Assembly (NCBI GenBank): GCA_937975135.1
Contig: CALJVA010000048.1
Location: 12,208-76,207 of the forward strand
Direction of reading: 5' to 3'
Origin: an uncultured Thermoactinomycetaceae bacterium
Lineage (GTDB): Bacteria > Bacillota > Bacilli > Thermoactinomycetales > CALJVA01
DNA length: 64,000 nt
Every line of letters starts with the position of its first letter. Position 1 is the first letter of the stretch. The notes beneath the pieces were generated by a model. That model was not told the DNA's origin. It made no database searches and saw only the letters and a list, made by a program, of their open reading frames with translations. Of the stretch, positions 8,692 through 24,465 are shown one piece after another. The position numbers and the translations under genes are program-made.

Positions 8692-9489
8692 ATGCGAGTG
8701 TTGATGATTGGAGATATTGTTGGTACTGCTGGGCAGTCCACGTTGATGGAATGGCTTCCACGTCTCCGTAGGTCACTTTCCCCTTCCATCGTCGTCGCTA
8801 ATGGTGAAAATGCGGCTGGGGGTCGGGGAATTACTCGTGCGATTTATCACAAGCTGTTGGAGATCGGTATCGACTGTGTAACATTGGGAAACCACACTTG
8901 GGCAAAGGAAGAGATTTTTGATTTTATTGATTCAGAGCCGCGTCTACTGCGACCGGCCAATTATCCACCTGGCACACCGGGAAAAGGAATTGCCCATCTA
9001 ACTGTCAATGGTGCACGTCTTATAGTGATAAGTTTGATGGGACGAACTTTTTTATCATCAAGCTTAGATTGTCCCTTTCGTACCGTTGATTCTTTGTTGG
9101 AGGGACTCGATCCAAAAACAACACCAATTTTGGTTGATTTTCACGCTGAAACAACTTCTGAAAAGCAGGCAATGGCTTGGTATTTAGATGGGCGGATTTC
9201 AGGATTAGTGGGTACTCATACTCATGTCCAGACAGCGGACGAGCGTATTTTGCCTCAAGGAACAGCTTATTTGACAGATGTTGGCATGGTAGGGCCCTAT
9301 GATGGTATCCTTGGGATGGATCGGGAGTTGGTTCAAAAAAGGTTCTTAACTCAACTTCCTGTACGGTTTAATACCGCAGGAGGGCGTACTCAGCTAAATG
9401 CTGTTCTCATCGACATTGATCTGACAACAGGAGGAGCCAAAAAAATTCGTCGAATACGGATTGATGATGATCACCCATTTCTGGAATGA
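8692..9489 (+). CDS. ymdB: YmdB-family metallophosphoesterase (2',3'-cyclic-nucleotide 2'-phosphodiesterase)
   Basis: MRVLMIGDIVG..., NGENAAGG, GNHTW, VDFHAETTSEK and THTHVQTADE. Start at the ATG with RBS GGAGGG, not the longer track ORF (8629). Confidence 0.93.
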   Translation: MRVLMIGDIVGTAGQSTLMEWLPRLRRSLSPSIVVANGENAAGGRGITRAIYHKLLEIGIDCVTLGNHTWAKEEIFDFIDSEPRLLRPANYPPGTPGKGIAHLTVNGARLIVISLMGRTFLSSSLDCPFRTVDSLLEGLDPKTTPILVDFHAETTSEKQAMAWYLDGRISGLVGTHTHVQTADERILPQGTAYLTDVGMVGPYDGILGMDRELVQKRFLTQLPVRFNTAGGRTQLNAVLIDIDLTTGGAKKIRRIRIDDDHPFLE

Positions 9490-9546
9490 GCCTCTCTTCC
9501 CATCTTTCCTTCCTTTTCAATTTTTAGAATGTTTATCTTTGCGAGA

Positions 9547-9571
9547 AGGAATTTATTGCTCACTGGCGAAT
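9547..9571 (+). promoter_or_regulatory. Possible sigma-H-type promoter of spoVS
   Basis: AGGAATT, 14 nt, GAAT resembles the sigma-H consensus. B. subtilis spoVS is sigma-H dependent. Confidence 0.35.
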
Positions 9572-9614
9572 ATATTTATTGTGGACTCACTTCAACCATC
9601 GAGGAGGTAACTAC

Positions 9615-9875
9615 ATGGAAGTATTAAAAGTTTCAGCAAAGTCCAGCCCGAATTCTGTTGCAGGTGCATTGGCCGGCGTATTGCGTGAGCGTGGGGCAGC
9701 CGAGATCCAAGCGATTGGTGCCGGTGCATTGAATCAAGCTGTGAAGGCGGTTGCGATTGCACGAGGATTTGTGGCTCCTAGTGGACTCGATCTGATTTGT
9801 ATACCGGCATTTACTGATATTATGATCGATGGTGAAGAGCGCACAGCCATCAAATTGATCGTAGAGCCTCGCTAA
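9615..9875 (+). CDS. spoVS: Stage V sporulation protein S
   Basis: MEVLKVSAKSSPNSVAGALAGVLRE... is a typical 86-aa SpoVS. RBS GAGGAGG upstream. Confidence 0.97.
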   Translation: MEVLKVSAKSSPNSVAGALAGVLRERGAAEIQAIGAGALNQAVKAVAIARGFVAPSGLDLICIPAFTDIMIDGEERTAIKLIVEPR

Positions 9876-9996
9876 TCCTGAAGATAAGTGCGCCACAAAG
9901 ATGGTGAAATAACCCATAACTCTTCTTCATGATTGGCGGGTTGGGAAATTATTCCTTCAACTTATGATGGGATTTCACCATGTGCTTGACAGACGG

Positions 9997-10030
9997 AACC
10001 TGTTTATCTTGTATAGACAGGTTTTCTTTT
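9997..10030 (+). terminator. Terminator after spoVS
   Basis: AACCTGT...ACAGGTT stem followed by TTTCTTTT. Confidence 0.7.
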
Positions 10031-10050
10031 GATAGGAGGTTTTAAATAGA

Positions 10051-10995
10051 TTGCGCTTTATTGATGGTCATTGTGATGTATTGTATAAATTATGGGATGG
10101 TGTAGATCCCAAAGATTTTTATGGCAAGGAAAGCAAATTGGATGTTACTTATCCAATGGCACAGAAAGCGCACCTTGCCATGCAAGTATTTGCTATTTTT
10201 GTACCGCCAGAGATTCCAAAAGCGCAAGCCTGGCAGGTAGCTTTGCAGCAAATTGACCATTTTTATGAGGGAATTGTAGGTGATAAAAATTATGTGGTTC
10301 CGGTTTTAAACCGGGACGATTTGGCCGCCTTACAACAAGGGGATAAATTAGGAGGGCTGTTGCTCTTGGAAGGAGTGGATGCCCTTCAGGGAGAGCTGCT
10401 TTATCTGCGGATTCTCCACCGCTTAGGAGTAAGGCAAGTAGGACTTACATGGAATTATGCCAATGAAGCGGCAGATGGAATTGAGGAAGAACGGGGAGGC
10501 GGTCTTACTCGCTTTGGTCGAGAGTTGGTAAAAGAGATGAGCCGTTTGTCGATGATTTTAGATGTTTCTCATCTATCGATCAAAGGATTTTGGGAAGTGA
10601 TGGAGTCGACTGAGCTCCCTGTGGTCGCCTCTCATTCCAACTGCCGGGCCGTTTGTTCTCATAAGCGAAACCTGGAGGATGATCAGATTAAGGCCTTGAT
10701 TGCACGAGATGGAAGGATTGGTATCACCTTTGTGCCCAAGTTCCTTCGAGATTCTCCTGAAGAGGTGATGTTGGACGATCTTCTTCGCCACATTGATCAT
10801 GTGTGCAGTCTTGGTGGTGCTGATCATCTTACATTCGGTTCTGACTTTGATGGGATTGATGATAAAGTCCCAGGGTTGGAGAATTTGGGACAACTGCACA
10901 ATTTGATCGATCGTCTGATCGCCCGTTATCCGGAACCATTAGTACAAAAATGGACCTTTGAAAATTGGTATCGCTTTTATAACAATGTGCTTTAA
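10051..10995 (+). CDS. Membrane (renal-type, M19) dipeptidase family protein
   Basis: IDGHCD, LTWNYANE, DVSHLS, SHSN and FGSDFDG motifs of peptidase family M19. TTG start. Confidence 0.85.
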   Translation: MRFIDGHCDVLYKLWDGVDPKDFYGKESKLDVTYPMAQKAHLAMQVFAIFVPPEIPKAQAWQVALQQIDHFYEGIVGDKNYVVPVLNRDDLAALQQGDKLGGLLLLEGVDALQGELLYLRILHRLGVRQVGLTWNYANEAADGIEEERGGGLTRFGRELVKEMSRLSMILDVSHLSIKGFWEVMESTELPVVASHSNCRAVCSHKRNLEDDQIKALIARDGRIGITFVPKFLRDSPEEVMLDDLLRHIDHVCSLGGADHLTFGSDFDGIDDKVPGLENLGQLHNLIDRLIARYPEPLVQKWTFENWYRFYNNVL

Positions 10996-11020
10996 GGGTA
11001 TAGGGCGAGAAGATAAGAAG

Positions 11021-11049
11021 ACCACCCTCTGCAATGGGGGTGGTTTTTT
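11021..11049 (+). terminator. Terminator after dipeptidase
   Basis: ACCACCC-tctgcaat-GGGGGTGGT followed by TTTTTT. Confidence 0.85.
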
Positions 11050-11311
11050 CATGGGTTTGCGAAACCCTGGTATCTGATTTTTATGCTAAAATAGAGTAAG
11101 AAAAGGGAGAATGAAAGGAGTAACATGAATTCGTGTGAATCGAAGGTTGCTTTTTGTTCCAAAGGGGAATAGAATTGTGATGATAAAAAATATACCGCAT
11201 CTCCATCCTGCGAAACATAAAATTAGATAAACTGATGGCGATGGGGTTATAAAACTGTGTATAAAGAAAATTCCAGTTTGCCTGTAGGGAGTATCTAAAG
11301 GAGATGAGCTC

Positions 11312-13072
11312 ATGATCAAGCAGTTGTCATGGAAAGTGGGCGGACAACAGGGGGAGGGGATTGAAAGCACTGGTGAGATTTTTTGCTTGGCCCTCAACCG
11401 CATGGGATATTATTTATATGGATATCGTCATTTTTCCTCTCGAATTAAAGGTGGACATTCCAACAACAAAATTCGGATTAGCACAAAACCAGTTGGTTCA
11501 ATTTCAGATGATTTAAATGTCCTGGTGGCATTTGATCAGGAAACCATTGATCTCAACGCCCACGAGTTGGTGGAGGGCGGGGTGATCTTGGCAGATGCTA
11601 AATTTAATCCAGTTGTCCCCGAAAATGTGCCCGCACGATTGTTTGCAGTTCCCTTTACAGAAATTGCCCAAGAAGTAGGCATGGCTCAGATGAAAAATAT
11701 GGTTGCTGTAGGTGCTTCCAGTGCACTACTTGGATTTTCTGTCGAGTCTTTTCAGGAAGTAATTGAGGAGAAGTTTTTGCGCAAAGGTCAACAGATTGTT
11801 GATAAAAATATGGAAGCAATTAAGCGTGGTGCCCAATATATTTTGGACGAAACAGGAGGGCCATTAGAGGAGCTTCAGTTGGAGCCTGCTGATGGGAAGA
11901 AGCGACTCTATATGATCGGGAACGATGCGATTGCATTGGGAGCCTTGGCTGCTGGTTGTCGTTTGATGGCTGCCTATCCAATTACACCTTCTTCAGAAAT
12001 TATGGAATATCTTATTAAGAAGCTACCTGAGTTTGGTGGAACGGTTGTGCAAACGGAAGATGAGCTGGCGGCGATTACGATGGTGATTGGTGCAAATTAT
12101 GGTGGAGTACGGGCACTCACCGCTTCAGCGGGTCCGGGATTATCCTTGATGACTGAAGCAATCGGTCTTTCAGGAATGACAGAGACGCCAGCAGTTATTG
12201 TGAATACACAGCGGGGGGGACCAAGTACTGGTTTACCTACCAAGCAAGAACAGAGCGATATTCTCGCCATGCTGTATAGCACACACGGGGAAATTCCCAA
12301 AATTGTCATCGCGCCCAGCACAGTAGAAGAATGCTTCTATGATACAATCCAAGCATTTAACTTGGCTGAGAAATATCAGTGTCCGGTAATTATTCTTTCC
12401 GATTTGGCCCTATCCTTAGGAAAACAGACGGTAGAGCCTTTGGATTATGACCGGATTGAAATCGAGCGAGGAAAATTAATAACAGATGAAAGTGAATTGC
12501 CGGAACTGGGCAATTCCGAATTGTTCCCCCGTTACAAGAATACTGAGGATGGAATTTCTCCTCGTGTTCTACCAGGGATGAAAAATGGATTGCACCATGT
12601 GACGGGTGTAGAGCATGATGAGACGGGACGTCCTTCAGAGAAGGCTGACAACCGGAAAATGATGATGGAAAAACGGCTTAGCAAGCTTGAGGATGGAATC
12701 GATTTCCATGAACCAGTTTTTGTCGATGCAGAGCATGAAGAAGCCGATCTGTTGATGGTAGGTCTTTGCTCGACTCGTGGAACCATCCAAGAGGTAAAAG
12801 AGCGACTGGAGGCAGAGGGGATCAAGGTGAACCATGCTCATGTACGCCAAGTTCTGCCCTTCCCTACAGAAGAAATGCTTGAGCAAATGAAACGGGCCAA
12901 AAAAGTGGTTGTAGTAGAGAATAATATGACAGGTCAATTGGCGGCGCTATTAAAGCTCTATGTAGGAATGGCCGAAAAAATTGTAGAGATCGGGAAATAT
13001 GATGGTAATCCTTTCCTTCCAGCAGAAGTTTACAATCAGTGTAAGGAGCTGATGGTTCATGGCCACGTTTAA
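11312..13072 (+). CDS. korA: 2-oxoacid (2-oxoglutarate):ferredoxin oxidoreductase, alpha subunit
   Basis: Fused gamma/alpha-type domains (GGQQGEGI..., AYPITPSSEI). Overlaps the beta subunit gene by 14 nt. Confidence 0.88.
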   Translation: MIKQLSWKVGGQQGEGIESTGEIFCLALNRMGYYLYGYRHFSSRIKGGHSNNKIRISTKPVGSISDDLNVLVAFDQETIDLNAHELVEGGVILADAKFNPVVPENVPARLFAVPFTEIAQEVGMAQMKNMVAVGASSALLGFSVESFQEVIEEKFLRKGQQIVDKNMEAIKRGAQYILDETGGPLEELQLEPADGKKRLYMIGNDAIALGALAAGCRLMAAYPITPSSEIMEYLIKKLPEFGGTVVQTEDELAAITMVIGANYGGVRALTASAGPGLSLMTEAIGLSGMTETPAVIVNTQRGGPSTGLPTKQEQSDILAMLYSTHGEIPKIVIAPSTVEECFYDTIQAFNLAEKYQCPVIILSDLALSLGKQTVEPLDYDRIEIERGKLITDESELPELGNSELFPRYKNTEDGISPRVLPGMKNGLHHVTGVEHDETGRPSEKADNRKMMMEKRLSKLEDGIDFHEPVFVDAEHEEADLLMVGLCSTRGTIQEVKERLEAEGIKVNHAHVRQVLPFPTEEMLEQMKRAKKVVVVENNMTGQLAALLKLYVGMAEKIVEIGKYDGNPFLPAEVYNQCKELMVHGHV

Positions 13073-13925
13073 AGATTTCCGCAACAAGGTAAAACCGAAT
13101 TGGTGCCCCGGTTGTGGTGACTTCTCTGTCTTGGCTGCGATGCAGCGTGCTTTTGCCAATTTGGGCCTTGAACCGGAAGACGTAGCAATTGTATCGGGAA
13201 TTGGTTGTTCCGGTCGAATCTCGGGTTACATTAATGCCTATGGCTTCCATGGTGTTCATGGACGGGCACTTCCCATTGCACAAGGACTAAAGTTGGCCAA
13301 TCGGAATTTAACAGTAGTTGCAGCCGGTGGGGATGGAGATGGCTACGCAATCGGTCTTGGACATACCCTTCATGCGATCCGTCGCAATATCGATATTACT
13401 TATATTGTGATGGATAACCATGTGTACGGTCTGACAAAAGGGCAAACTTCGCCGCGAAGCGATGTCGGTTTTAAGACGTCAAGCACTCCGAAAGGAGCTG
13501 TTGAATCAAAGATCGCTCCAATGGAAATGGCCTTAACAGCAGGAGCCGGCTTTGTCGCTCAAGCTTTCTCTAGTGACGTAAAGCAGATGACCCGTCTGAT
13601 TGAAGAGGGAATCAAGCATAAAGGATTTTCGATCATTAACGTATATAGCCCCTGTGTGACCTATAATAAAGTGAATACCTATGATTGGTTCCGCGAAAAT
13701 TTAGTCAATCTTGATGAAGATGAGTCTTATGATCCAACTAACAAGGCCATGGCCATGCAGAAGCTGATGGAACATGATGGACGGGTAACGGGGCTTATCT
13801 ATCAAAATAAAGAGTTGCAGCCCTATGAAGATTTAGTGCCAGGCTTTAGCAAAGAGCCACTTGTGGATAAAGATTTGAAATTACCACGTGAAAAATTTGA
13901 ACAACTACTTACCGAATTTATGTAA
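13059..13925 (+). CDS. korB: 2-oxoacid (2-oxoglutarate):ferredoxin oxidoreductase, beta subunit
   Basis: WCPGCGDF, GIGCSGR and TPP-binding GGDGDGYAIG motifs. Confidence 0.9.
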   Translation: MATFKDFRNKVKPNWCPGCGDFSVLAAMQRAFANLGLEPEDVAIVSGIGCSGRISGYINAYGFHGVHGRALPIAQGLKLANRNLTVVAAGGDGDGYAIGLGHTLHAIRRNIDITYIVMDNHVYGLTKGQTSPRSDVGFKTSSTPKGAVESKIAPMEMALTAGAGFVAQAFSSDVKQMTRLIEEGIKHKGFSIINVYSPCVTYNKVNTYDWFRENLVNLDEDESYDPTNKAMAMQKLMEHDGRVTGLIYQNKELQPYEDLVPGFSKEPLVDKDLKLPREKFEQLLTEFM

Positions 13926-13932
13926 CCAGGAA

Positions 13933-13969
13933 GAAAAGCCATTTCCCCAGAAGGGGAAGTGGCTTTTTT
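13933..13969 (+). terminator. Strong terminator after korB
   Basis: AAAAGCCATTTCCCC-agaa-GGGGAAGTGGCTTTT followed by a T-run. Confidence 0.9.
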
Positions 13970-14214
13970 CTGTGCAAGGGAGCAGGAGAATCGTAGAATT
14001 AGATGTAATTTTATATTCTATTTTTTATTTCCCTTCAATCCTTTGGTTTATATATAATAGTATATAGGTTGATGTCCTAATGCTACTTCCTTATACTTTA
14101 TTAGTGTACTAGGTGATTCTACGAGATTTCTATAGAGATATAGAAGTCTTTTTCCATCAAAGGGATTGTTTTGAAGATGCTCTGTAATTTGTAATTCGAT
14201 GCTTAGTTAAAAAT

Positions 14215-15543
14215 TTGAGGAGAAAGGATCGAAGGGAATTGAGCTCCTTGTTGGGCGAAATAGGTATATTTACATCTATTCTTTTGGGATTCCAAACCAT
14301 AGTCTTTTTTGCTTCGATTTTTTGGCTTGCTCAAAGGATCATAATGGAAAGAAAGGCTTTCAAGGAAGTAGCAGAGAGTCTTCGCTTAATGGCAAATCCT
14401 GATCCAGAGCAATTGGAAGAGATTTTTACTAAGGTAGAAGGATCCCGCTATTATACGCTTTGGCATCGTTATCGTCAGCGTATTCCTATTCGTGAACCAT
14501 ACCAAGAGGCCTTTAATACATATTTTGATGCTGAAGCGATGCGGAGAGTGCTCGGATATCGCTCTGAGGTGGAAACCGTTTCCCAAGTTCATATTGCCTT
14601 GGGTGTACTGGGCTCCTTATTCAGTGTTGTCTGGACTTGGTCAGGGGGTGGAATCGATCCAGAAGGTATATTTACCGCACTGTATCCCTTTTTATGGGGA
14701 GTTATTCTTTTGGTAGTATGGCTGATCGTAGATCGGATTCTTGTATCTCCCTTAGAGGGAAAGGTAGAACATCACACTGGAATGCTGGAAGATGTGCTGT
14801 TAAGGGCTCATCATGGTCAGTGGATGGAAAAATGGAAGCAAGAGTTTGTGGCGGCTCTGGAAAACGGTTTGTCTCCCCTTTTGCAACAAATGAAGCGGAT
14901 CGAAGAAGAAAGAATGGAAGAGCGGGAAGGAGTGTTGGAACTGCTCCGCTCTATTGAGCACTCACTGCAAACCATGGAAAGGGAAGGGGCAAGGCATGAG
15001 GCCCATTTCACAGAGCAGATGGAGAACCTGGGTCTTCTGATACATACCATGCAGGAAGTAACGACTGAGCTAGTAAGCGTCATTCCGAAGTTAGAAGATG
15101 TTGTACAAGGTATCGATACTTTAAAAGAAGGGCTAGGGGAGATGCAAGAGGGGCAGCAGCAAACATTGATGGAACTTGCAACGGAAAGAGAGGAACACAA
15201 TGGGCTGCTCCAGCAGACGATGCAGGAAATGGAAGATCATGTGAAGGGAATATCCAAACAAGTAGCAAGTATGCAAGAGCAATGGACAGGAATCAAGGAT
15301 GAGTTTATAGAGTTACGAAGAAATCTAGAGCGATCTGGGGAAAAATTTGCTTCTGATATTCATAATGGACTGGATAAAACCTTTGATCATTTTGATCGCG
15401 AATTAACCGAAGCGATGAAGAAGTTTAGTCAGTTAAATCGCCGCTTTACAGATAGTCATGAAAAGCTATTGAGAGAATTGGAAGAGCTACCGAGAAGGTT
15501 GGAGAGTGTTATACAATCCAAAGAGTGTGATGGTAAACAATAG
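14215..15543 (+). CDS. MotA/ExbB-topology membrane protein with long C-terminal coiled-coil tail (ZorA-like)
   Basis: TM1, ~85-aa loop, TM2 (HIALGVLGSLFSVVW), 9-aa loop, TM3, then ~265 aa of Q/E/M-rich coiled coil. No in-frame ATG near the 5' end; TTG candidates at 14215/14239/14248, so the start is uncertain. Confidence 0.65.
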   Translation: MRRKDRRELSSLLGEIGIFTSILLGFQTIVFFASIFWLAQRIIMERKAFKEVAESLRLMANPDPEQLEEIFTKVEGSRYYTLWHRYRQRIPIREPYQEAFNTYFDAEAMRRVLGYRSEVETVSQVHIALGVLGSLFSVVWTWSGGGIDPEGIFTALYPFLWGVILLVVWLIVDRILVSPLEGKVEHHTGMLEDVLLRAHHGQWMEKWKQEFVAALENGLSPLLQQMKRIEEERMEEREGVLELLRSIEHSLQTMEREGARHEAHFTEQMENLGLLIHTMQEVTTELVSVIPKLEDVVQGIDTLKEGLGEMQEGQQQTLMELATEREEHNGLLQQTMQEMEDHVKGISKQVASMQEQWTGIKDEFIELRRNLERSGEKFASDIHNGLDKTFDHFDRELTEAMKKFSQLNRRFTDSHEKLLRELEELPRRLESVIQSKECDGKQ

Positions 15544-15614
15544 AAGTATGTTCAACAATCCCTTTCATTGGAATGAATCTTTGATGATGAGGGAATCCCG
15601 TAGGTTGTTTTCAT

Positions 15615-15640
15615 CCCCAAAGCTGAAGCTTGGGGGTTTT
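15615..15640 (+). terminator. Terminator-like hairpin between the ZorA-like and MotB-like genes
   Basis: CCCCAAAG...CTTGGGGG (one internal mismatch) followed by TTTTCAAAAT. Confidence 0.5.
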
Positions 15641-15708
15641 CAAAATCCATTAGATAGAATACTAAACACCTGAACATTTTTTGTGCAGCAAAGGGATGAT
15701 ACAAGTCC

Positions 15709-16365
15709 ATGAGGATTACAAGGGAGAGAGGAAGAGAATCGGGCCGGTTCCTTTTCTATATCAATGTTTTTGGAACAGTGCTTTTAGGAATTTTTTTTAT
15801 TTACGCTTTAGTTCATGCTCATGATTTGGAGCAGCCAGAGAAAAAAGAAAAGTCGATTTCAAAGGTTGTAAAGGAAAAGAGCGAAGAAGCGAGTAATCTG
15901 GATCGGATCGCCCAAACTCTTGCAAAACAGGGAGCAGTGGTCGACCTTGAGGTTGAAAAGGGGGTGATTCGTTTTCCACAGCGGATTTTGTTTGACTTTG
16001 ATTCTGCGATTCTCTCCAAGGAAGGCAAGGAAATTTTGCAGCAACACCTTCCTCTGTATTTGAGAGTTTTGATGGAAGAGTCTTATTGTGATGAGGTTGC
16101 CGCCTTGGTGATCGAAGGGCATACCGATGATAAGGGCTCTTATGCCTATAATATGAAATTATCGCAAGAGCGGGCTAATGCGGTATTTCAGTATCTCTAC
16201 AGTGAACAATTTCCCCCTTTTGACGGGAAAGGGTGCTCGCAACTCCCCGTGTTGGTACAGGGAGCAGGGCCTAGTATTCCTGTTTATACGGAGGAGAAGT
16301 ATGATGCTGCCCAATCCCGTCGAGTAGAAATTTTGTTTCAGTTGAAAAAGGAAGTGGATGAATGA
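15709..16365 (+). CDS. MotB/OmpA-family protein: single TM helix + peptidoglycan-binding domain (ZorB-like)
   Basis: Basic N-terminus, TM helix FLFYINVFGTVLLGIFFIYALV, and OmpA_C motifs FDFDSA, EGHTDDKGS, NMKLSQERANAV and SRRVEI. Confidence 0.85.
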   Translation: MRITRERGRESGRFLFYINVFGTVLLGIFFIYALVHAHDLEQPEKKEKSISKVVKEKSEEASNLDRIAQTLAKQGAVVDLEVEKGVIRFPQRILFDFDSAILSKEGKEILQQHLPLYLRVLMEESYCDEVAALVIEGHTDDKGSYAYNMKLSQERANAVFQYLYSEQFPPFDGKGCSQLPVLVQGAGPSIPVYTEEKYDAAQSRRVEILFQLKKEVDE

Positions 16366-17621
16366 GGTATGTGTATCACCCAGTCCGGTTGCGTGCTTGG
16401 GTGAGAGAAGAGATAGTTGGGGAGGAGGCTTTGTTCGAGTTTTCATTGCCCCCGCAGTTAGAGCCTTTAAAAGAAGGCTTTGCTCAGGCTCGGGCGCGGG
16501 GTCAGATGGTATTGGACAGATGGGTACGAGGTTTAAGCCGTTTGGAGAAGTGCCTCTTGCCCATTCTGTTTATCTTGGATGAGCGGGAAAAGGGCCGCTT
16601 GGTACTGCGGCCTTATATTTACCGTCAATTGAGAGATTGGCGTACTTTTCCTTTCCTTGTTGGCTTTCTATACCAAAGGGGTGTTTGCTTTCTATACCAG
16701 CAGGATCAAGAACATTGGTACCAATTGATGTGGATGTGGATTCGGAAAGCTTATTTCTATCGCCAAGAAGAGATTGAGAAAAGGATGACGCCACGTCAAG
16801 TAAAAAGGTGGAGAAAGTGGCTTAGTCATCCAATGAACCCGATTAAACACCTCGTTGAAATGGCTCTTAAAGAAGCAAGGTATTTTGATGTCATCGAAGA
16901 GGTAGGCTTAACTTCCGATTACCCTTTTTTCCACCGCGTGTGGAAAGTGACTTTATGTGAGGCACCCCTGGAGTTTTTTAAGCGCGAAAAGAAGCTTTGT
17001 CTAGCCTTGTTTGCTCAAGGAACTTCTTCTTTCCGGGAAAAGATGGTGATACATCTTGTGCAGCGAGAGATCCTTGATGAAGTGCCTGAATTAGGGGATT
17101 TAATCTATGAAATAATGAAGACTTATCGGATGGAACCTCACCTATGGGTAAATATTCCAGAACGTGAGCGGCGGAATTTTCACAATTGGGTGGTACGCCG
17201 AAAGAAAGAGAAGTTCTCTGACTTCTACGATTATTTCCATGAACGTGTCCGGTATTGGCGAAAGTTTATTTACCGAGTACAGAAGGTAGTACCACTATTT
17301 AGGAGAGGAGAAAAAGCATTTTTGCTTTATTTTTCTGATGTTGTTGTGATGGAGCCGATTCAGGGGAAGCAAGCGGGGGCAGCCTATGTATATAGGCACT
17401 CCATTTTCCACAAAGAATTTGGGAAATTAGTAGAGGAGTGGGAGCAGAATAAGAAGATAAGGCTGAAAGATTTTCGTAATTTGGATTTAATTGCAACCGA
17501 GCACAAACTTGATCATCGTAAAAAGGAAGGTATGACTTGGCAAGAATTCTTTGACAAACAACTTTCTACTTGTTTAGGATGGGATGTGTCCGAGGACGAT
17601 GAGAAGGAGGAGCGTGAATGA
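16362..17621 (+). CDS. Uncharacterised 419-aa Trp/Arg/Tyr-rich soluble protein
   Basis: ATGA overlap with both the upstream and downstream genes. No TM segment and an acidic C-terminal tail. No family recognisable by eye. Confidence 0.75.
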   Translation: MRYVYHPVRLRAWVREEIVGEEALFEFSLPPQLEPLKEGFAQARARGQMVLDRWVRGLSRLEKCLLPILFILDEREKGRLVLRPYIYRQLRDWRTFPFLVGFLYQRGVCFLYQQDQEHWYQLMWMWIRKAYFYRQEEIEKRMTPRQVKRWRKWLSHPMNPIKHLVEMALKEARYFDVIEEVGLTSDYPFFHRVWKVTLCEAPLEFFKREKKLCLALFAQGTSSFREKMVIHLVQREILDEVPELGDLIYEIMKTYRMEPHLWVNIPERERRNFHNWVVRRKKEKFSDFYDYFHERVRYWRKFIYRVQKVVPLFRRGEKAFLLYFSDVVVMEPIQGKQAGAAYVYRHSIFHKEFGKLVEEWEQNKKIRLKDFRNLDLIATEHKLDHRKKEGMTWQEFFDKQLSTCLGWDVSEDDEKEERE

Positions 17622-18355
17622 AGTGGACGGTGTTGGGGTACCAATCTCCCTATCCAGGACCTCAGGGAGCAACTCCTGGGTATCTGTTGGAGGTGGAAGG
17701 AAAGCGAATTCTTGTTGATTGTGGCAGTGGGGTACTGGCCCAGTTGTCCCAGTATTGCCGGCCGGATCAACTGGATGCGGTTTTCTTATCCCATTTACAC
17801 CATGATCATATTGCTGACTTTTTTGTTCTGCAGTATAGCTTGTTAACGGCAAAAAGATTGGGGAGGCGGAGCAAGCCGCTTCCCGTTTTTGCACCTTTGA
17901 CACCAGAAAAATGGGGTCGACTTCTTCCATATCATGAGCACATTCAGTTAACGGAAATTCGAGAGGGGATGGAAGTAGAGATCGACTCACTGAAGGTTTC
18001 TTTTTACCAAACAGATCACGGCGTTCCTTGTTTTGCGATGGTTTTTACCGTTAATGGATTAACCACTCTTTACGGAGCTGATTCCGGTCCTAAAACAGAT
18101 TGGAGAAGAATGACTCATCGACCTGATTTGTTCATTTGTGAAGCTACATTTTTGGAACAAAATCGACCCAAGGAGTCCCTAGGTCACTTAAGTGCGAAGC
18201 AAGCTGGGGAGGCTGCCACAAGAATTGGAGCGAAGCGGTTATTGCTTACACACTTTTTTCCTGAATTTGATCCCGAAGCGGTAGCAGAAGAAGGGAAAGC
18301 ATCCTTTTCAGGGGAGTTATGGATCGCCCATTGTGGACAGGTAATCTCTTTGTGA
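17618..18355 (+). CDS. MBL-fold metallo-hydrolase (YhfI/RNase Z-like small form)
   Basis: ILVDCGSG, HLHHDH (HxHxDH), and downstream TDH and THF metal-ligand positions. Start overlaps the preceding stop (ATGA). Confidence 0.85.
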   Translation: MKWTVLGYQSPYPGPQGATPGYLLEVEGKRILVDCGSGVLAQLSQYCRPDQLDAVFLSHLHHDHIADFFVLQYSLLTAKRLGRRSKPLPVFAPLTPEKWGRLLPYHEHIQLTEIREGMEVEIDSLKVSFYQTDHGVPCFAMVFTVNGLTTLYGADSGPKTDWRRMTHRPDLFICEATFLEQNRPKESLGHLSAKQAGEAATRIGAKRLLLTHFFPEFDPEAVAEEGKASFSGELWIAHCGQVISL

Positions 18356-18458
18356 CTGGGAAATGTCCACTATATAAGGACATATTCATTTCCATTCTTC
18401 ATGGGAACTGCTATAATCCTTAGTAGATCACAACATTGGAAAGAAGGAAGTGTCCGCC

Positions 18459-19499
18459 GTGAGTGGAACAATGCGCGCACTCGTCAAACATCATGCTGAT
18501 TTTGGTGCCCGTCTAGAGGAGGTTCCCATTCCAGAAATTGGTCCGGAAGAGGTATTAATCCGTGTACGGGCAGCCAGTTTATGTGGGACAGATGTTCATA
18601 TTTATCAGTGGGATGACTGGGCCAAGGGACGGGTGAAGCCACCTTATGTTTTTGGGCATGAATTTTCAGGAGAAATTGTTGCCGTAGGTGAGAAAGTAAC
18701 CCGTTTCCAGATCGGAGATCATGTCTCTGCTGAATCCCATATTGTGTGCGGAATTTGTCCCCAGTGTCGCCGGGGCGAAGGGCATGTATGCCAAAATACC
18801 TCAATTATTGGTGTAGACCGGGCAGGTTGTTTTGCTGAGTATATTGCGATGCCAGCTGAAAATTTATGGAAAAATGATCCTTCGCTTCCCTTTGAAACCG
18901 CTTCAATTATGGAGCCTATGGGAAATGCAGTTCATACAACTCTGGCTGGGCCCATCGCTGGAAAGCAAGTTGCCGTAATCGGCTGTGGCCCAATTGGTTT
19001 AATGGCTATTTCCGTTGCCCAGGCGGCAGGTGCAGCTCGTGTTTATGCTTTTGATATAAACCCCTATCGACTGCAGTTGGCGAAGCAGATGGGGGCATCA
19101 GCAGTGATCAACTCTGCAGAGGAAGACCCAGTGGAGAAAATCGCTTCACTTACAGATGATTCGGGTGTAGATGTAGTTTTGGAGATGTCGGGTCATCCTG
19201 AAGCGATTCGCCAGGGGTTACGTATGGTAACTTTAGGTGGACGTGTTTCTTTGCTTGGCTTGCCGACAGAGAAGGTGAGCTTGGATATTGCCAACGATCT
19301 GGTTTTCAAGGGACTTACTGTACAGGGGATTGTTGGCCGCCGTATGTATGAGACATGGGAGCAGACAGCCGGTTTCCTTCATTCTGGGAAGGTGAATTTG
19401 GAGCCGATCATTACCCATCGGTTGCCCTTGGAGCAATTTGAGGAAGCATTTCAACTGATGATAAGTGGGAAGTCAGGAAAAGTGGTATTATATCCCTGA
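18459..19499 (+). CDS. tdh: L-threonine 3-dehydrogenase
   Basis: Zn-ADH motifs (CGTDVHIY, GHEFSGE, CGICPQCRRG) and synteny with kbl. GTG at 18459 is preferred (RBS GAAGGAAG 8 nt upstream); the track ORF begins at 18450. Confidence 0.93.
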   Translation: MSGTMRALVKHHADFGARLEEVPIPEIGPEEVLIRVRAASLCGTDVHIYQWDDWAKGRVKPPYVFGHEFSGEIVAVGEKVTRFQIGDHVSAESHIVCGICPQCRRGEGHVCQNTSIIGVDRAGCFAEYIAMPAENLWKNDPSLPFETASIMEPMGNAVHTTLAGPIAGKQVAVIGCGPIGLMAISVAQAAGAARVYAFDINPYRLQLAKQMGASAVINSAEEDPVEKIASLTDDSGVDVVLEMSGHPEAIRQGLRMVTLGGRVSLLGLPTEKVSLDIANDLVFKGLTVQGIVGRRMYETWEQTAGFLHSGKVNLEPIITHRLPLEQFEEAFQLMISGKSGKVVLYP

Positions 19500-19534
19500 T
19501 AGTTTACTAACAATCATGAAGGAGGCGGTTTTAT

Positions 19535-20710
19535 ATGCGGGGATTTGAGCATCTGCAGCAGGAGATTGAAAAGTGGAGAGAGGAAGGGGTTTTTCGACCG
19601 TTAACCGAAATTGCTTCGGAACAGGGAAGTAAGGTGGTTATCCGTGGTAAAGAGGTGATCCAGCTTTCCTCTAATAACTATCTCGGATTGACTACCCATC
19701 CGCGCTTGCGGAAAGCGGCGATTGAGGCAGTGGAGAAGTATGGTGCTGGTACAGGCTCGGTTCGGACGATTGCTGGTACTTTTTCGATGCATGAACAGTT
19801 CGAGGAAAAGTTAGCCCAATTTAAGAATACGGAAGCCACTTTGGTGTTTCAGTCCGGTTTTACTACCAATGCTGGGGTGATCGCTTCAATTTTAAGTGAG
19901 GAAGATGTTGTAATCAGTGATGCTTTAAATCACGCCAGTATTATTGATGGGATTCGGCTGACAAAGGCAAAGCGTAGAATTTATCAGCATAATGATATGG
20001 ACGATTTGGAAAAGGCTTTAAAGGAATCTCAAGATGCCCGAACACGTTTGGTAGTAACTGATGGCGTCTTTAGTATGGATGGGGATATTGCTCCCTTGCC
20101 GGATATTGTCGCCTTGTGTGAAAAGTACGATGCTCTGGTAATGGTAGATGATGCCCATTCCAGTGGGGTACTAGGGAAAAATGGTCGAGGTACAATTGAC
20201 CATTTCGGTTTACACGGCCGAGTTCATATTCAAGTGGGAACATTGTCCAAGGCGATTGGTGTATTGGGAGGGTATGTGGCAGGACCCAAGGTGCTGCGTG
20301 ATTATTTGATTCATCGGGCTCGCCCCTTCTTGTTTAGTACTTCTCATCCCCCAGCAGTAACTGCAGCATGCAGTGCGGCAATCGATGTGCTCCAGGAAGA
20401 GCCTGAGCTAATCGAGCGGTTGTGGGATAACACTCGTTTCTTTAAAGAGGGCCTAAAACGTTTAGGCTTTGATACGGGAGAAAGTGAAACACCCATTACT
20501 CCTGTAATTGTAGGAGAAGGAGCTAAGGCAATGGCCTTATCGGATGCCTTGTTTGAAGAAGGGGTATATGCACAGGGAATTGCCTATCCAACCGTCCCCA
20601 AGGATAAGGCCCGTGTCCGGACGATTGTCACAGCAGTACATACACGGGAAGAGCTCAGCTTTGCTCTGGATGCCTTTGAGCGAGCTGGGAAGAGGTTGGG
20701 AATCATTTAA
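19535..20710 (+). CDS. kbl: Glycine C-acetyltransferase (2-amino-3-ketobutyrate CoA ligase)
   Basis: Alpha-oxoamine synthase family ([23 protein letters not shown]-lysine). Immediately follows tdh. Confidence 0.95.
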
Positions 20711-20734
20711 AGCAATTACAATTCGTAATAAAGG

Positions 20735-20770
20735 ACCCGACGTTGTAATACGTCGGGTTGTTTTTATTTT
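20735..20770. terminator. Bidirectional terminator between kbl and the convergent MFS gene
   Basis: ACCCGACGT-tgtaat-ACGTCGGGT followed by TGTTTTTATTTTT. Confidence 0.85.
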
Positions 20771-21960
20771 TGCCATGAACGGACGAATTGGCGAGTCCCT
20801 TGAGCAGAGATGGCTAATATGACACTTGATGCGATAAAGATCCATTGAATCGGAATTACTTCCGCCAACATACTGATAAATAAAATAGACACCCCAAAAA
20901 CAAGGGAGATAAGCGCACTTTGCGCGCTGGTTACTTTGGGTAAATCCTTTGTCGTCGTTTCTTTTTGTATAAACACCTGAAGAATGATCCCTTTCATTTG
21001 ATCAAAACATCCATTCATTGCAAGAAGAAATAAGGCAACAACAGGATACGGGTTTAGTGCAAACCAAAAAGTACTGATCGCCGTTGAAAAAGCGACTGTG
21101 ATGATAAATCTCCCTTGTTTTTTCTCTATCCATTTTCCACCTTTTAGAATTAGCCCGCCTCCTATGATGAGACCAAAAAAATAACTTGAGTTCAAATAGC
21201 CCCACCATGCTTCAGAGACATGGAGAACATCTTGTACAAAAATGTACAATAATGCCGCCACCCAAACGACATTTGCAATTGTATCAAGGGTAAAAATGTA
21301 ATGAATCGTTTTTAAGTGAGGATGATGCCAAATAAGTTGCCAGCCTTCTTTTATTTCTTGAAACCACTCAATCCGCCCTTCTTTTTTCTCAAAGGGGTGG
21401 GGATCAAAAATTTTCCACATTAAGAAGCTTGCCATCATGTATAAAATGACGACGATCCAAAGGATAGAGGAATGTTTCAAATAAGCAACTGCTACTCCAC
21501 CAAGAGTCCATCCTCCAAATTGAACCATCTCAGAGATTGTCGCCATAAAGCTATTCGCTTTTCTTAATTGATGTGTTTCTACCAGTCGCGGTAAAAGGGC
21601 ATACGTTGCAGGAGCTGCCCAACCGTCTAAAAAGGCTATGATACTGATGACGAAAAAAGTAAGGATCAGTGGAACCGAGGAATTAAAGTAAATCTGGAGG
21701 ACGAAGAGAAATAGCCCGCTTGTTTTCCAGAGTTGGGAGTAGAACAAAATCGATCGCAGTGGGTAACGATTGATAAGAGGTGGTGCAAAAAAACCACTTA
21801 AAAATCGTCCCATTGTATTTAAAAACGGCAATAGTCCGACGATAAAGGTTGATTCTGTCGCTGTATATAAAATGGCGACGAGTCCGACAATATAAAGAAC
21901 ATCCCCGAGGTCTGCCAATGCTTGACCATACCATAAATAACGAAATGATTGATTTTGCAT
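20764..21960 (-). CDS. MFS transporter (12-TM, enterobactin-exporter-like subfamily)
   Basis: Hydrophobic 398-aa protein with N-terminus FRYLWYGQALADLGD, typical of MFS_3-type transporters. Confidence 0.8.
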   Translation of the reverse strand: MQNQSFRYLWYGQALADLGDVLYIVGLVAILYTATESTFIVGLLPFLNTMGRFLSGFFAPPLINRYPLRSILFYSQLWKTSGLFLFVLQIYFNSSVPLILTFFVISIIAFLDGWAAPATYALLPRLVETHQLRKANSFMATISEMVQFGGWTLGGVAVAYLKHSSILWIVVILYMMASFLMWKIFDPHPFEKKEGRIEWFQEIKEGWQLIWHHPHLKTIHYIFTLDTIANVVWVAALLYIFVQDVLHVSEAWWGYLNSSYFFGLIIGGGLILKGGKWIEKKQGRFIITVAFSTAISTFWFALNPYPVVALFLLAMNGCFDQMKGIILQVFIQKETTTKDLPKVTSAQSALISLVFGVSILFISMLAEVIPIQWIFIASSVILAISAQGTRQFVRSWQK

Positions 21961-22259
21961 ATAAACTACCTCTTATAATAATTTTTTAATTTGCGAGTAG
22001 AGGTAGTTTAATCACATTGGAAAATACTCCTATTCCTAATAAAAAATGAGAAGTAACTAGCTGTAAACAGATTTATAAGAGGTCGTATCTGCAAAATCAT
22101 TTTTTATATTATATCGTGATTATGCTGTATTGTCTTCCTAATTTAATATAACTACATAACAAGAGTTTCAGTATGCTTGTGGTTTTATGCTTGTTCAATT
22201 ATGGTCCTTTGATACTATTGATATCAATCTATTTTTCATTCTCTCAACGATAACCACAA

Positions 22260-22287
22260 ACACTTATAGAAACAAATTCATAATGTA
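22260..22287 (+). promoter_or_regulatory. Possible sigma-K-type promoter of the poly-Ala gene
   Basis: AC, 17 nt, CATAATGTA fits AC-N16/17-CATANNNTA. Lies 30 nt upstream of the ATG. Short motif, so weak evidence. Confidence 0.3.
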
Positions 22288-22316
22288 ATAGTGATCAAGG
22301 GAAAGGAGGAGAAGAA

Positions 22317-22787
22317 ATGGGTAAAGTTCATTGCAAAAAACGACGACATTGGTGGATGAGAGGAAACAACTCAGGCAGTAGAAATGGAATTGCTACCGCT
22401 GCTGCTGCTGCTGCTGCCGCTGCGGGGCATGCCGCTGCCGCCGCTGCCGCTGCTGCCGCGGGTCGCAATAGTTCCGCTGCCGCTGCTGCTGCTGCTGCGG
22501 GTCGCTCTGCTGCTGCTGCTGCCGCTGCTGCTGCTGGTCCTCATGCCGCTGCCGCCGCCGCCGCTGCCGCCGCTGCTGCTGGCCGTAATGGTGCCGCCGC
22601 TGCTGCTGCTGCCGCTGCTGGTCGTCATGCCGCTGCTGCTGCCGCTGCCGCCGCTGCTTCTGGCAATGGGTCTTCCTCTGCCGCTGCTGCCGCCGCTGCG
22701 GGGCATGCCGCTGCCGCTGCTGCCGCTGCTGCCGCTGCCGGAAGTGCCGCTGCCGCTGCTGCTGCTGCCGCCTCTGCTCGTCGTTAA
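22317..22787 (+). CDS. Poly-alanine block protein (156 aa; basic N-terminus + ten Ala7-12 blocks)
   Basis: RBS AAGGAGG 7 nt upstream of the ATG, hairpin terminator downstream. Ala blocks are separated by GH/GRNSS/GRS/GPH/GRNG/GRH/SGNGSSS/GS linkers. Confidence 0.6.
   Translation: MGKVHCKKRRHWWMRGNNSGSRNGIATAAAAAAAAAGHAAAAAAAAAAGRNSSAAAAAAAAGRSAAAAAAAAAGPHAAAAAAAAAAAAGRNGAAAAAAAAAGRHAAAAAAAAAASGNGSSSAAAAAAAGHAAAAAAAAAAAGSAAAAAAAAASARR
22392..22778 (+). repeat. (GCY)n trinucleotide low-complexity tract
   Basis: About 390 nt composed almost entirely of GCT/GCC (a few GCG) codons. All three + frames and one minus frame stay open over much of the tract. Confidence 0.95.
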
Positions 22788-22802
22788 CGTAAGTGATTTG
22801 GT

Positions 22803-22840
22803 AGATCCTGCTCTTTCTAAGGGCAGGATCTATATAGTTT
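22803..22840 (+). terminator. Hairpin after the poly-Ala gene
   Basis: AGATCCTGC-11 nt-GCAGGATCT followed by ATATAGTTT (weak T-tract). Confidence 0.6.
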
Positions 22841-22989
22841 AAACCAGTTTGTAATGCAAACCTAATACATACATCGACACGCCACTACACTTGCCAGTGA
22901 TGGCCATTGATGGGAGGGTCCATTTACGTTATAATTTTTCTAGATGATGGGGTAATGTGCACGTTTCGATAGAAAGGTGTTGAATATAG

Positions 22990-24465
22990 ATGGACGGCAA
23001 ACAAAATTACAAAGCTCCTTTTGTGCCTCCCAATCTGTTTGAGGCAAAAAGAAGGGGCCGATCAGAGGTTAAGGTACTGCAATTTGAAGATATTCCAGAA
23101 GAAATGAAAAAAATCGGGTACGGCAAACGGTATTTGATTCGCACCTACGGTTGCCAAATGAACGTTCATGATAGTGAGACCATTGCCGGTTTATTAGAAA
23201 CGATGGGCTATAAGCCGACCGAAGAGGAAGAGGAGGCTGATCTGATTCTTCTCAACACCTGTGCGATCCGTGAAAATGCGGAGGATAAGGTGTTTGGAGA
23301 AATTGGCCGATTAAAAACCCTCAAGCTGGAAAATCCAGAGCTAGTATTGGGTGTCTGTGGCTGTATGTCACAAGAAGAGTCAGTGGTTAACCGTATTTTG
23401 CAGCAGCATCAATATGTGGATTTGATTTTTGGTACCCACAACATTCACCGCCTTCCTTACTTGCTACGAGATGCATTGATGAGCAAGGAGATGGTCGTGG
23501 AAGTATGGTCCAAGGAAGGGGATATAGTAGAAAACTTACCCAAGGTACGGCAAGATGGTCTCAAGGCATGGGTCAACATTATGTACGGATGCGATAAATT
23601 CTGCACTTACTGTATTGTGCCCTATACCCGAGGAAAAGAGCGAAGTCGTCGGCCAGAAGAAGTATTGGCTGAAATTCGTGACTTGGCCCGTCGTGGGTAT
23701 CAAGAGGTAACACTACTTGGGCAAAATGTGAATGCCTATGGAAAAGATTTTGTGGACCGAAATTATCGCTTTGCCGATTTGATGGATGATGTACGCAAAA
23801 TCGGGATTCCTCGTGTTCGTTTTACGACCAGTCACCCTCGGGACTTTGACGATCGTCTGATTGAAGTATTAGCTAAGAGGGGCAACTTGGTAGAGCATAT
23901 TCATCTTCCCGTTCAATCGGGTAGCAATCAAATTTTAAAGCGGATGGCTCGCAAATATACTCGGGAAAGTTATCTAGAGTTGGTCCGGAAAATTCGAGAA
24001 GCAATTCCAGATGTAGTATTGACAACAGATATTATTGTGGGCTTTCCCGGGGAAACTGAAGAGCAATTTGAGGAAACGTTGTCCTTAGTGCGAGAAGTAG
24101 AGTATGATTCGGCGTTTACCTTCATTTATTCACCCCGTGAAGGAACACCAGGGGCAAAAATGGAAGATAATGTGTCTGAAGAAGAAAAAAAGGAGCGACT
24201 TCATCGCTTGAACCGCCTGCAGGATGAAATTAGTCTCCGAAAAAATGAAGCCCTGCGGGGAACCGAGGTCGAAGTGTTGGTTGAAGGGGCTAGCAAAAAG
24301 AATCCAGAGGTGCTATCCGGCCGAACACGTACCAATAAGTTGGTTAATTTCCGAGGTCCACAGCATTTGATTGGAAAGTTTGTAAAGGTGCGGATCGATC
24401 AACCCCAAACTTGGACCCTAAACGGTGTCTGGGTAGAGGAACCAAGAGCTGAAGTGGGGAGCTAA
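22990..24465 (+). CDS. miaB: tRNA-2-methylthio-N6-dimethylallyladenosine synthase
   Basis: UPF0004 domain, radical-SAM [11 protein letters not shown] and a TRAM domain. Syntenic with B. subtilis ymcB. Confidence 0.97.

Follow-up and report, generated by a model that had tools for sequence, protein, structure and literature searches.

Can a Zorya module be kept by a bacterium without its motor and without its nuclease? The question arises from a gene cluster in a 64,000-nucleotide (nt) stretch of DNA, hereafter the window, from contig CALJVA010000048.1 of an uncultured Thermoactinomycetaceae bacterium. An earlier reading of the letters alone (the sequence-only reading) reported four open reading frames (ORFs) there and took them for a compact, stator-driven Zorya type: a ZorA/ZorB pair (genes A and B) with an undescribed accessory set, namely an orphan protein (gene C) and a metallo-β-lactamase (MBL)-fold hydrolase as candidate nuclease effector (gene D). 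All four ORFs are indeed present on the + strand (A, 14215-15543; B, 15709-16365; C, 16362-17621; D, 17618-18355), and both ATGA stop/start overlaps, B/C and C/D, are seen in the sequence. The accessory set proves to be something else. In our judgment genes A to C are probably a ZorABC derived from type I Zorya and retained without rotation or nuclease; beside it stands an unrelated resident hydrolase gene.

By profile comparison, genes A, B, and C are a type I Zorya module, though a divergent one: they encode ZorA, ZorB, and ZorC. Gene A matches PADLOC ZorA1 (PDLC00602) at E=1e-41, and gene B matches ZorB1 (PDLC00609) at E=7e-47. The coiled-coil tail of ZorA might inflate a whole-protein score, so its amino-terminal 205 residues were scored alone; against a head profile built from canonical sequences only they score E=9e-21; of 200 shuffled controls, not one was reported. 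The family profiles also match solved structures: 8vvn_C (2e-22) and 8qyd_A (2.7e-19) for ZorA; 8vvi_A (3e-26) and 8qyd_F (1.1e-23) for ZorB. The proposed ZorA/ZorB pair thus stands. So do its finer points: gene B (218 amino acids, aa) encodes an amino-terminal transmembrane (TM) helix and an OmpA-type peptidoglycan-binding domain (PGBD; Pfam OmpA, E=3.9e-14), whose motif residues are invariant; and the GVLGS helix of gene A, likened to channel helices for its GxxGS motif, aligns with the conserved G-V/I-L/I-G-T of ZorA TM2. One suggested check gave a mixed answer: gene A has no Pfam MotA_ExbB match, and its link to the family runs through PADLOC ZorA1 and the family profiles.

Gene C (419 aa) is no orphan, being instead the canonical type I partner, ZorC. 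It matches PADLOC ZorC1 (PDLC00615) along its length (E=6.6e-43; residues 1-412 against profile positions 1-409 of 426), and 13 of 22 aligned family members match Pfam EH_Signature (PF15611). Gene C itself gives no direct EH_Signature match; its assignment as a divergent EH-signature protein comes via the PADLOC and family profiles. The family comprises 27 representative clusters among 1.84 billion proteins. Word-based homologue searches with A and C returned matches only within their own clade, and single-sequence searches of the PDB with these two proteins gave nothing useful. Five residues invariant in the ZorC family are retained in the window: R295, W299, E331, H385, and W393. These fit the R335/W339/E400/H443/W458 network of Escherichia coli ZorC (EcZorC), the E400 and H443 correspondence being one of family-invariant columns only, as neither sequence nor fold allowed a mapping onto EcZorC. 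The ZorC family profile matched no PDB sequence and did not recover EcZorC. An AlphaFold2 model of ZorC has a predicted local distance difference test (pLDDT) score of 84.6.

What the module lacks is as telling as what it has. Homologues of gene C occur at 21 loci in other Bacillales genera, and each of these loci encodes ZorA, ZorB, ZorC, and then ZorD (confirmed by PADLOC ZorD1 in three loci, E=0 to 2e-267, and by tblastn in all 21). The canonical proteins measure about 505-765 aa (mostly about 648) for ZorA, about 223 for ZorB, and about 424 for ZorC. ZorABC without an adjacent ZorD is found in the window (identical to L002-L005) and in two related lineages, L027/L001 and L029/L030; these three Zor+ lineages form the window clade. 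No ZorD remnant was detected: tblastn with four ZorDs over the window and the clade contigs gave noise only (best E=0.066), and no ORF in the window exceeds 874 aa, that one being mutS. A neighbour-joining (NJ) tree of ZorC places the window clade as sister to a Bacillaceae/Paenibacillus group, and the Planococcaceae, which have ZorD, fall outside both. Such a placement suggests that ZorD was lost secondarily in the window clade.

The motor residues are missing as well. In the ZorB TM helix, Asn19 (AAT, 15763-15765) replaces the motor Asp, aligning with D26 of E. coli ZorB (EcZorB; SYAD26LM in the 8qyd_F profile). Among 28 full-length ZorB-like proteins the position holds Asp in 25 and Asn in three, the latter only in the window clade; AAT encodes the Asn in each of the three Zor+ lineages, where canonical loci have GAT. 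The canonical motif SYADLMSAM reads FYINVFG, FYVNVFG, or SYINVVG in the clade, where Asn19 and its surroundings (YxNVxGxxLLG) are conserved, and the helix contains no other acidic residue. The clade ZorB therefore lacks the protonatable TM Asp conserved in type I Zorya and in 5:2 ion-driven motors. ZorA shows a similar loss (residues numbered on the 442-aa ORF and mapped through the 8qyd_A profile alignment): T147 of E. coli ZorA (EcZorA) corresponds to S134, still polar, and S184 to F159, so a polar-ring residue is gone. In L029 both equivalents are lost (T147 to Ala, S184 to Phe), and polar residues of TM3 are lost in the clade; the Ser/Thr polar ring of type I Zorya is broken. With Asn for the essential Asp in ZorB and a polar-ring residue lost from ZorA, the description "stator-driven" is doubtful.

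ZorA is also shortened. Its architecture is conventional, with three TM helices followed by a coiled-coil tail of ~260 aa. The alignment shows that, relative to canonical proteins, ~200 aa of mid-tail are absent along with 12 aa of the TM2-TM3 loop; the carboxyl-terminal ~190 aa are retained, and the tail tip is conserved. Tail length alone is not diagnostic, because canonical ZorAs of 505-511 aa are known from Paenibacillus and Planococcaceae loci. The gene likelier begins at the TTG at 14239 than where the ORF opens at 14215, giving a 434-aa product (14239-15543, +): AAAGGA lies 10 nt upstream of this TTG, the string formed by ribosome-binding site and start (AGAAAGGATCGAAGGGAATTG) is kept in the two other lineages, and in L002 the gene was called from the equivalent position, at 434 aa.

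How does this module compare with its relatives? The Bacillales type I systems (PDLC00602/00609/00615/00633; for example Geobacillus, Anoxybacteroides, Paenibacillus, Planococcus; L006-L025) have homologous ZorA, ZorB, and ZorC and share gene order, strand, and the zorB/zorC overlap. Unlike them, the window clade has no ZorD, an Asn in ZorB, a Phe at the ZorA S184 equivalent, and a ZorA ~200 aa shorter; protein identity to them is only 22-32%. Moreover, the clade zorABC is fixed at one core-genome site, whereas the Bacillales systems occupy variable contexts. The module falls short of type I in three defining features: the ZorD gene, the Asp of ZorB, and the polar ring of ZorA. The likeness to 5:2 motors (MotAB/PomAB, ExbBD, TolQR) lies in a MotA/ExbB-type channel subunit and a single-TM partner with a MotB-like, OmpA-type PGBD; the difference lies in the absence of the conserved TM Asp that models of ion translocation and rotation in ZorAB/MotAB-type motors require, and in the long cytoplasmic tail and ZorC partner. 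Two further loci can be added. L021 (7351-13396; an uncultured Bacillaceae metagenome-assembled genome, MAG) holds a canonical zorABCD in which zorA, zorC, and zorD are each in two pieces, through real pseudogenisation or assembly frameshifts, in contrast to the intact genes of the window clade. L026 (62-2537), a 2.5-kb contig of a MAG labelled Lutibacter sp. UBA4458 (Bacteroidota), carries zorC/zorD with 31-41% identity to the Bacillales family; either contamination during binning or transfer between phyla could account for it.

E. coli ZorI has been dissected by experiment. There, the ZorB D26N substitution yields a system that neither rotates nor defends; defence is also abolished by T147A/S184A in ZorA and by every truncation of the tail, and none of the four genes can be spared (PMC11946911). 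Mariano et al. (Nat Commun 2025) describe the Asp and the Ser/Thr ring as critically conserved, and tested ZorABC and D24N constructs, D24 being the Shewanella counterpart of D26 (PMC11890865). The window genes are thus natural versions of ZorB(D26N/D24N), of the ZorA polar-ring mutants, of a mid-tail deletion, and of ZorABC without ZorD. The laboratory constructs are defence-dead; in the window clade the same combination is kept by purifying selection, which implies some residual or different function. We found no description of such a ZorABC variant in the searchable literature. The genome surveys of Hu et al. (Nature 2024/25), which noted that Zorya is under-represented in single-membrane bacteria, were filtered for canonical zorABCD order (PMC11946911), and a locus such as this one would have been discarded by that filter.

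The evidence for selection is as follows. Between the window and L027, the ratio of nonsynonymous to synonymous substitution rates (dN/dS) is 0.36 for zorA, 0.17 for zorB, and 0.19 for zorC, at dS of 0.33-0.38; the MBL gene has 0.09, and flanking housekeeping genes 0.02-0.11. In the more distant L029, zorA, zorB, and zorC are intact at 40-50% aa identity, with synonymous sites saturated and KorA 92% identical. Across three lineages, about 3.2 kb of zorABC coding sequence contains no stop or frameshift. Constraint is uneven: dN/dS is 0.09 in the ZorB PGBD against 0.33 in its amino terminus and TM helix, 0.14-0.16 in the middle and EH core of ZorC, 0.49 in ZorA TM1 plus loop, and 0.42 in the ZorA tail tip, these per-domain values resting on small substitution counts. 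The three genes are kept by purifying selection, strongest on the ZorB PGBD and the ZorC core. The zorC value falls near the upper end of the 0.04-0.20 range of canonical zorA/B/C pairs (Geobacillus, Paenibacillus). A cluster of pseudogenes is ruled out by these ratios and by ORF integrity. The frameshifts in L001 were considered as signs of decay and set aside: the same contig carries a broken korA too, and L001 belongs to the same lineage as the intact L027, so these are probably assembly errors.

The second half of our answer concerns the hydrolase gene, which seems to have been there first. Five related lineages lack Zorya: L031, L033, L034, L035 (Desmospora activa), and L032 (Thermoflavimicrobium daqui). 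Their shared order is rny-ymdB-spoVS-dipeptidase-korA-korB-MBL-(0 to 2 genes)-tdh-kbl-miaB-ylbF-cotE-mutS, L032 diverging downstream of MBL. The MBL gene follows korB directly in L031, L033, L034, and L035, and after one inserted gene in L032; it lies 74-193 nt beyond the korB terminator in these Zorya-free lineages. Its nearest named homologues are all from Thermoactinomycetaceae. The sequence-only reading had treated the whole cluster, dipeptidase and korAB included, as intercalated; dipeptidase, korAB, and MBL turn out to be family-level synteny, and only zorABC is lineage-specific. Because the five outgroups have korB and then MBL without zorABC, and because zorC overruns the MBL Shine-Dalgarno sequence, zorABC must have entered the spacer between korB and MBL in an ancestor of this small uncultured Thermoactinomycetaceae clade, which has inherited it vertically since. 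No convincing flanking repeats, or other mobile-element signatures, were found at the insertion boundaries.

As to gene D itself (17618-18355, 245 aa), the MBL fold and the HLHHDH motif read from the sequence are borne out (Lactamase_B_2, E=5e-24). It matches BA1088 (PDB 1zkp, 9e-46) and PDB 6kns (8e-38), which we take to be Bacillus subtilis YhfI, over its full length. Its precomputed Pfam match is PF23023 Anti-Pycsar_Apyc1, and NCBIfam NF041851 scores 2e-38 with 132 bits, below the equivalog cut-off of 400. The YhfI/BA1088/Apyc1 group consists of class II MBL cyclic-mononucleotide phosphodiesterases, YhfI preferring cAMP/cGMP (PMC9117128). Gene D shares with YhfI, BA1088, and phage Apyc1 the full-length match and an HxHxDH motif, and is likened to them by sequence. 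It has no match among PADLOC defence models. Gene D therefore looks like a phosphodiesterase of this type; it is a neighbour of the Zorya module and not an ancestral component of it.

The gene's tight junction with zorC has a simple geometry. The last zorC codons (GAG AAG GAG GAG CGT GAA TGA) run across the MBL Shine-Dalgarno sequence into its ATG; since zorC reads through that ribosome-binding site, the overlap can be understood as zorC ending at a pre-existing gene start. The ATGA overlap occurs in all three Zor+ lineages, and only in this clade is MBL translationally overlapped by zorC. A terminator scan found no terminator-like site between the two genes, so they are probably co-transcribed. 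Some other signals were noted nearby. The strongest terminator-like hairpin of the region (17861-17884, +; 9 bp, 7 of them GC, then GTTTTTG) falls within the coding sequence of MBL, about 245 nt past the start of that gene, and a promoter-like TTGACA-18-TAGGAT (17551-17580, +) lies inside the zorC 3' end, just 5' of where MBL begins; chance may account for either. A promoter-like TTTCCA-17-TATAAT with an extended -10 TG (18389-18417, +) stands between MBL and tdh, so tdh-kbl may keep a promoter of its own, and a terminator follows kbl at 20734-20759.

What, then, might a ZorABC without motor and nuclease do? After entry into the spacer, the module would have lost ZorD (the Snf2/nuclease effector), its ion-motor residues, and about 200 aa of the ZorA tail. 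A ZorA5B2-like complex would still be anchored to peptidoglycan, and the conserved tail tip could still engage the DNA-binding ZorC, without rotation or a dedicated nuclease. Most likely, such a module would serve as a tether for ZorC or as a sensor, static and anchored in the envelope, reduced or repurposed rather than directing canonical Zorya DNA degradation. Its output could be attenuated defence, the use of an effector encoded elsewhere, or exaptation. The static tether is favoured because the parts kept (PGBD, tail tip, ZorC) and the parts lost (Asp, polar ring, ZorD) match the motor-independent and the motor-dependent steps, respectively. In E. coli D26N, ZorB foci still form after infection, and the phage-dependent change in ZorC co-localisation is significant (P=0.0042, as given in the legend to Fig. 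5f), which we read as ZorC co-localisation persisting; recruitment and co-localisation of ZorD are lost (PMC11946911). The further proposal, that selection has maintained this motor-dead ZorABC without nuclease from before the split of the three lineages, for a function independent of rotation and of ZorD, is more tentative; it is a serious possibility that falls short of probable. Such a function might be the static tether, or else a new partnership with the cyclic-nucleotide phosphodiesterase, which is probably co-transcribed.

Several points weigh against reading the locus as a retained ZorABC derivative with a function. First, E. coli ZorABC without ZorD, like the D26N/D24N constructs, gives no defence (PMC11946911, PMC11890865). 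Second, dN/dS of zorA and zorB is 2-5 times that of the canonical Geobacillus and Paenibacillus pairs; this 2-5-fold relaxation makes some decay of function possible. Third, the secondary loss of ZorD is drawn from one NJ tree, without bootstrap and with the clade on a long branch, and the ZorD search covered the window and clade contigs; an unlinked ZorD or other nuclease may lie elsewhere in the genome. Fourth, there are three effective lineages only, all metagenome assemblies, and two scans of metagenomes added none. Finally, structure prediction lent no help: the AlphaFold2 model of ZorA, from a two-sequence alignment, had a mean pLDDT of 43.9 and was not used, and Foldseek of the ZorC model against the PDB found nothing below E=0.3.

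The higher dN/dS of zorA and zorB also speaks for a rival, a dead or dying Zorya remnant in slow decay since the loss of ZorD, whose intactness would reflect short time or polar effects on MBL-tdh-kbl expression. Several parts that are each essential in E. coli (ZorD, the ZorB Asp, a polar-ring residue, the mid-tail) are missing, and the proteins have diverged fast, as the contrast with KorA shows. However, slow decay sits poorly with about 3.2 kb intact in three lineages at saturated synonymous divergence, at dN/dS of 0.17-0.36, and with constraint that follows domains (PGBD, 0.09; ZorC core, 0.14-0.16). Asn19 with YxNVxGxxLLG, the ZorA tail tip, and the leader and ribosome-binding site are conserved; and the frameshifts of L001 strike korA too, so they are probably assembly errors. 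We regard a decaying remnant as unlikely.

A rival in the opposite direction holds that this is a fully functional, canonical-type Zorya, with ZorD or an equivalent nuclease encoded elsewhere and ion flow through another residue or mechanism. The visible genome is 64 kb only, and purifying selection has kept ZorC, which acts jointly with ZorD in E. coli. However, ZorD is adjacent in 21/21 relatives; the ZorB TM helix offers no substitute acid, and ZorA TM3 has lost its polar residues; and the Asp-to-Asn change is precisely that of the published non-rotating, defence-dead ZorB mutants, D26N and D24N. The chance of this seems slight.

Just as improbable is the new compact, stator-driven type with the MBL hydrolase as nuclease effector and gene C as a novel adaptor, despite the zorC/MBL overlap in three Zor+ lineages with no terminator-like site between, the nuclease activity of some MBL-fold enzymes (RNase Z matches gene D at 5e-31), and an effector slot left formally open by the absence of ZorD: MBL holds the same position in five Zorya-free outgroups and occurs in 0/21 canonical loci; it is a close YhfI/BA1088 homologue, whose rate and active site show no change in Zor+ lineages (HLHHDH is kept throughout); read-through of its pre-existing ribosome-binding site by zorC explains the overlap; gene C is ZorC; and the stator is without its Asp. 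The four genes do not travel as a cassette, MBL standing without zorABC in L031-L035 and zorABCD without MBL in 21 loci, and MBL as part of the ancestral cassette is largely refuted.

Conservation extends to the region upstream of zorABC. The strong terminator and AT-rich gap described earlier are present: the intrinsic terminator of korB (13942-13969, +; stem 13942-13958, then a T-run) marks the left edge of the insertion site and is found in all Zor+ and Zor- lineages, and the spacer has a GC content of 0.35. An AT-rich leader block (14009-14066, +; ~58 nt) with TATATATAAT is near-identical in the window, L027, and L029 despite saturated synonymous sites. A consensus promoter-like site (14069-14097) follows just 3' of it. 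The block is a candidate promoter or operator of zorABC. An Rfam scan of 9000-24000 found no RNA elements.

Further observations concern the spacers of the locus. The zorA-zorB spacer is 165 nt in the window and 131 nt in L027; there is none in L029, where the two genes overlap. In the window this spacer contains copies of zorA-leader sequence (TTTCCATCAAAGGGATTGTT, 14149-14170), one inverted (20 nt, 85%) and one direct (18 nt, 83%), at 15554-15573 and 15680-15697; they may stem from a small duplication of the leader/ribosome-binding-site region. The korB-MBL-tdh stretch is a recurrent insertion site across lineages: T. daqui (L032, 8020-9921) has a gene for a 633-aa Amidase_2 protein in the korB-MBL spacer that holds zorABC in the window, and other lineages have a 5'-nucleotidase gene or two unannotated genes in the MBL-tdh interval (L033, 3508-5124; L034 and L035, about 8900-10700). 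Farther downstream, between a major facilitator superfamily (MFS) gene and miaB, lies a GC-rich (0.59) tandem array at 22398-22777 (within 22317-22842), with a GCT triplet period and about 9.6 copies of a 39-nt unit. It opens ORFs in several frames, for example one with a 156-aa poly-Ala/Gly-rich product; a 167-aa gene called there in L002 has no Pfam match. The array could be a low-complexity protein gene or non-coding repeat DNA.

Together, these results place side by side, under purifying selection, changes that were lethal to the system in both mechanistic Zorya studies: loss of rotation through the ZorB Asp, of the full ZorA tail, and of ZorD. Whatever the module does, its ATGA overlap with a neighbouring enzyme gene is no evidence that the enzyme belongs to the system. 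If the locus is only decaying slowly, it offers a well-resolved case of the erosion of a defence system after insertion into a core operon. If it has a real function, peptidoglycan anchoring and ZorC recruitment would be separated from rotation and DNA degradation, and nature would have supplied a construct for testing ZorAB-ZorC by itself, in a Gram-positive, spore-forming background in which few Zorya systems occur. It would then be a natural separation-of-function Zorya variant in a monoderm bacterium.

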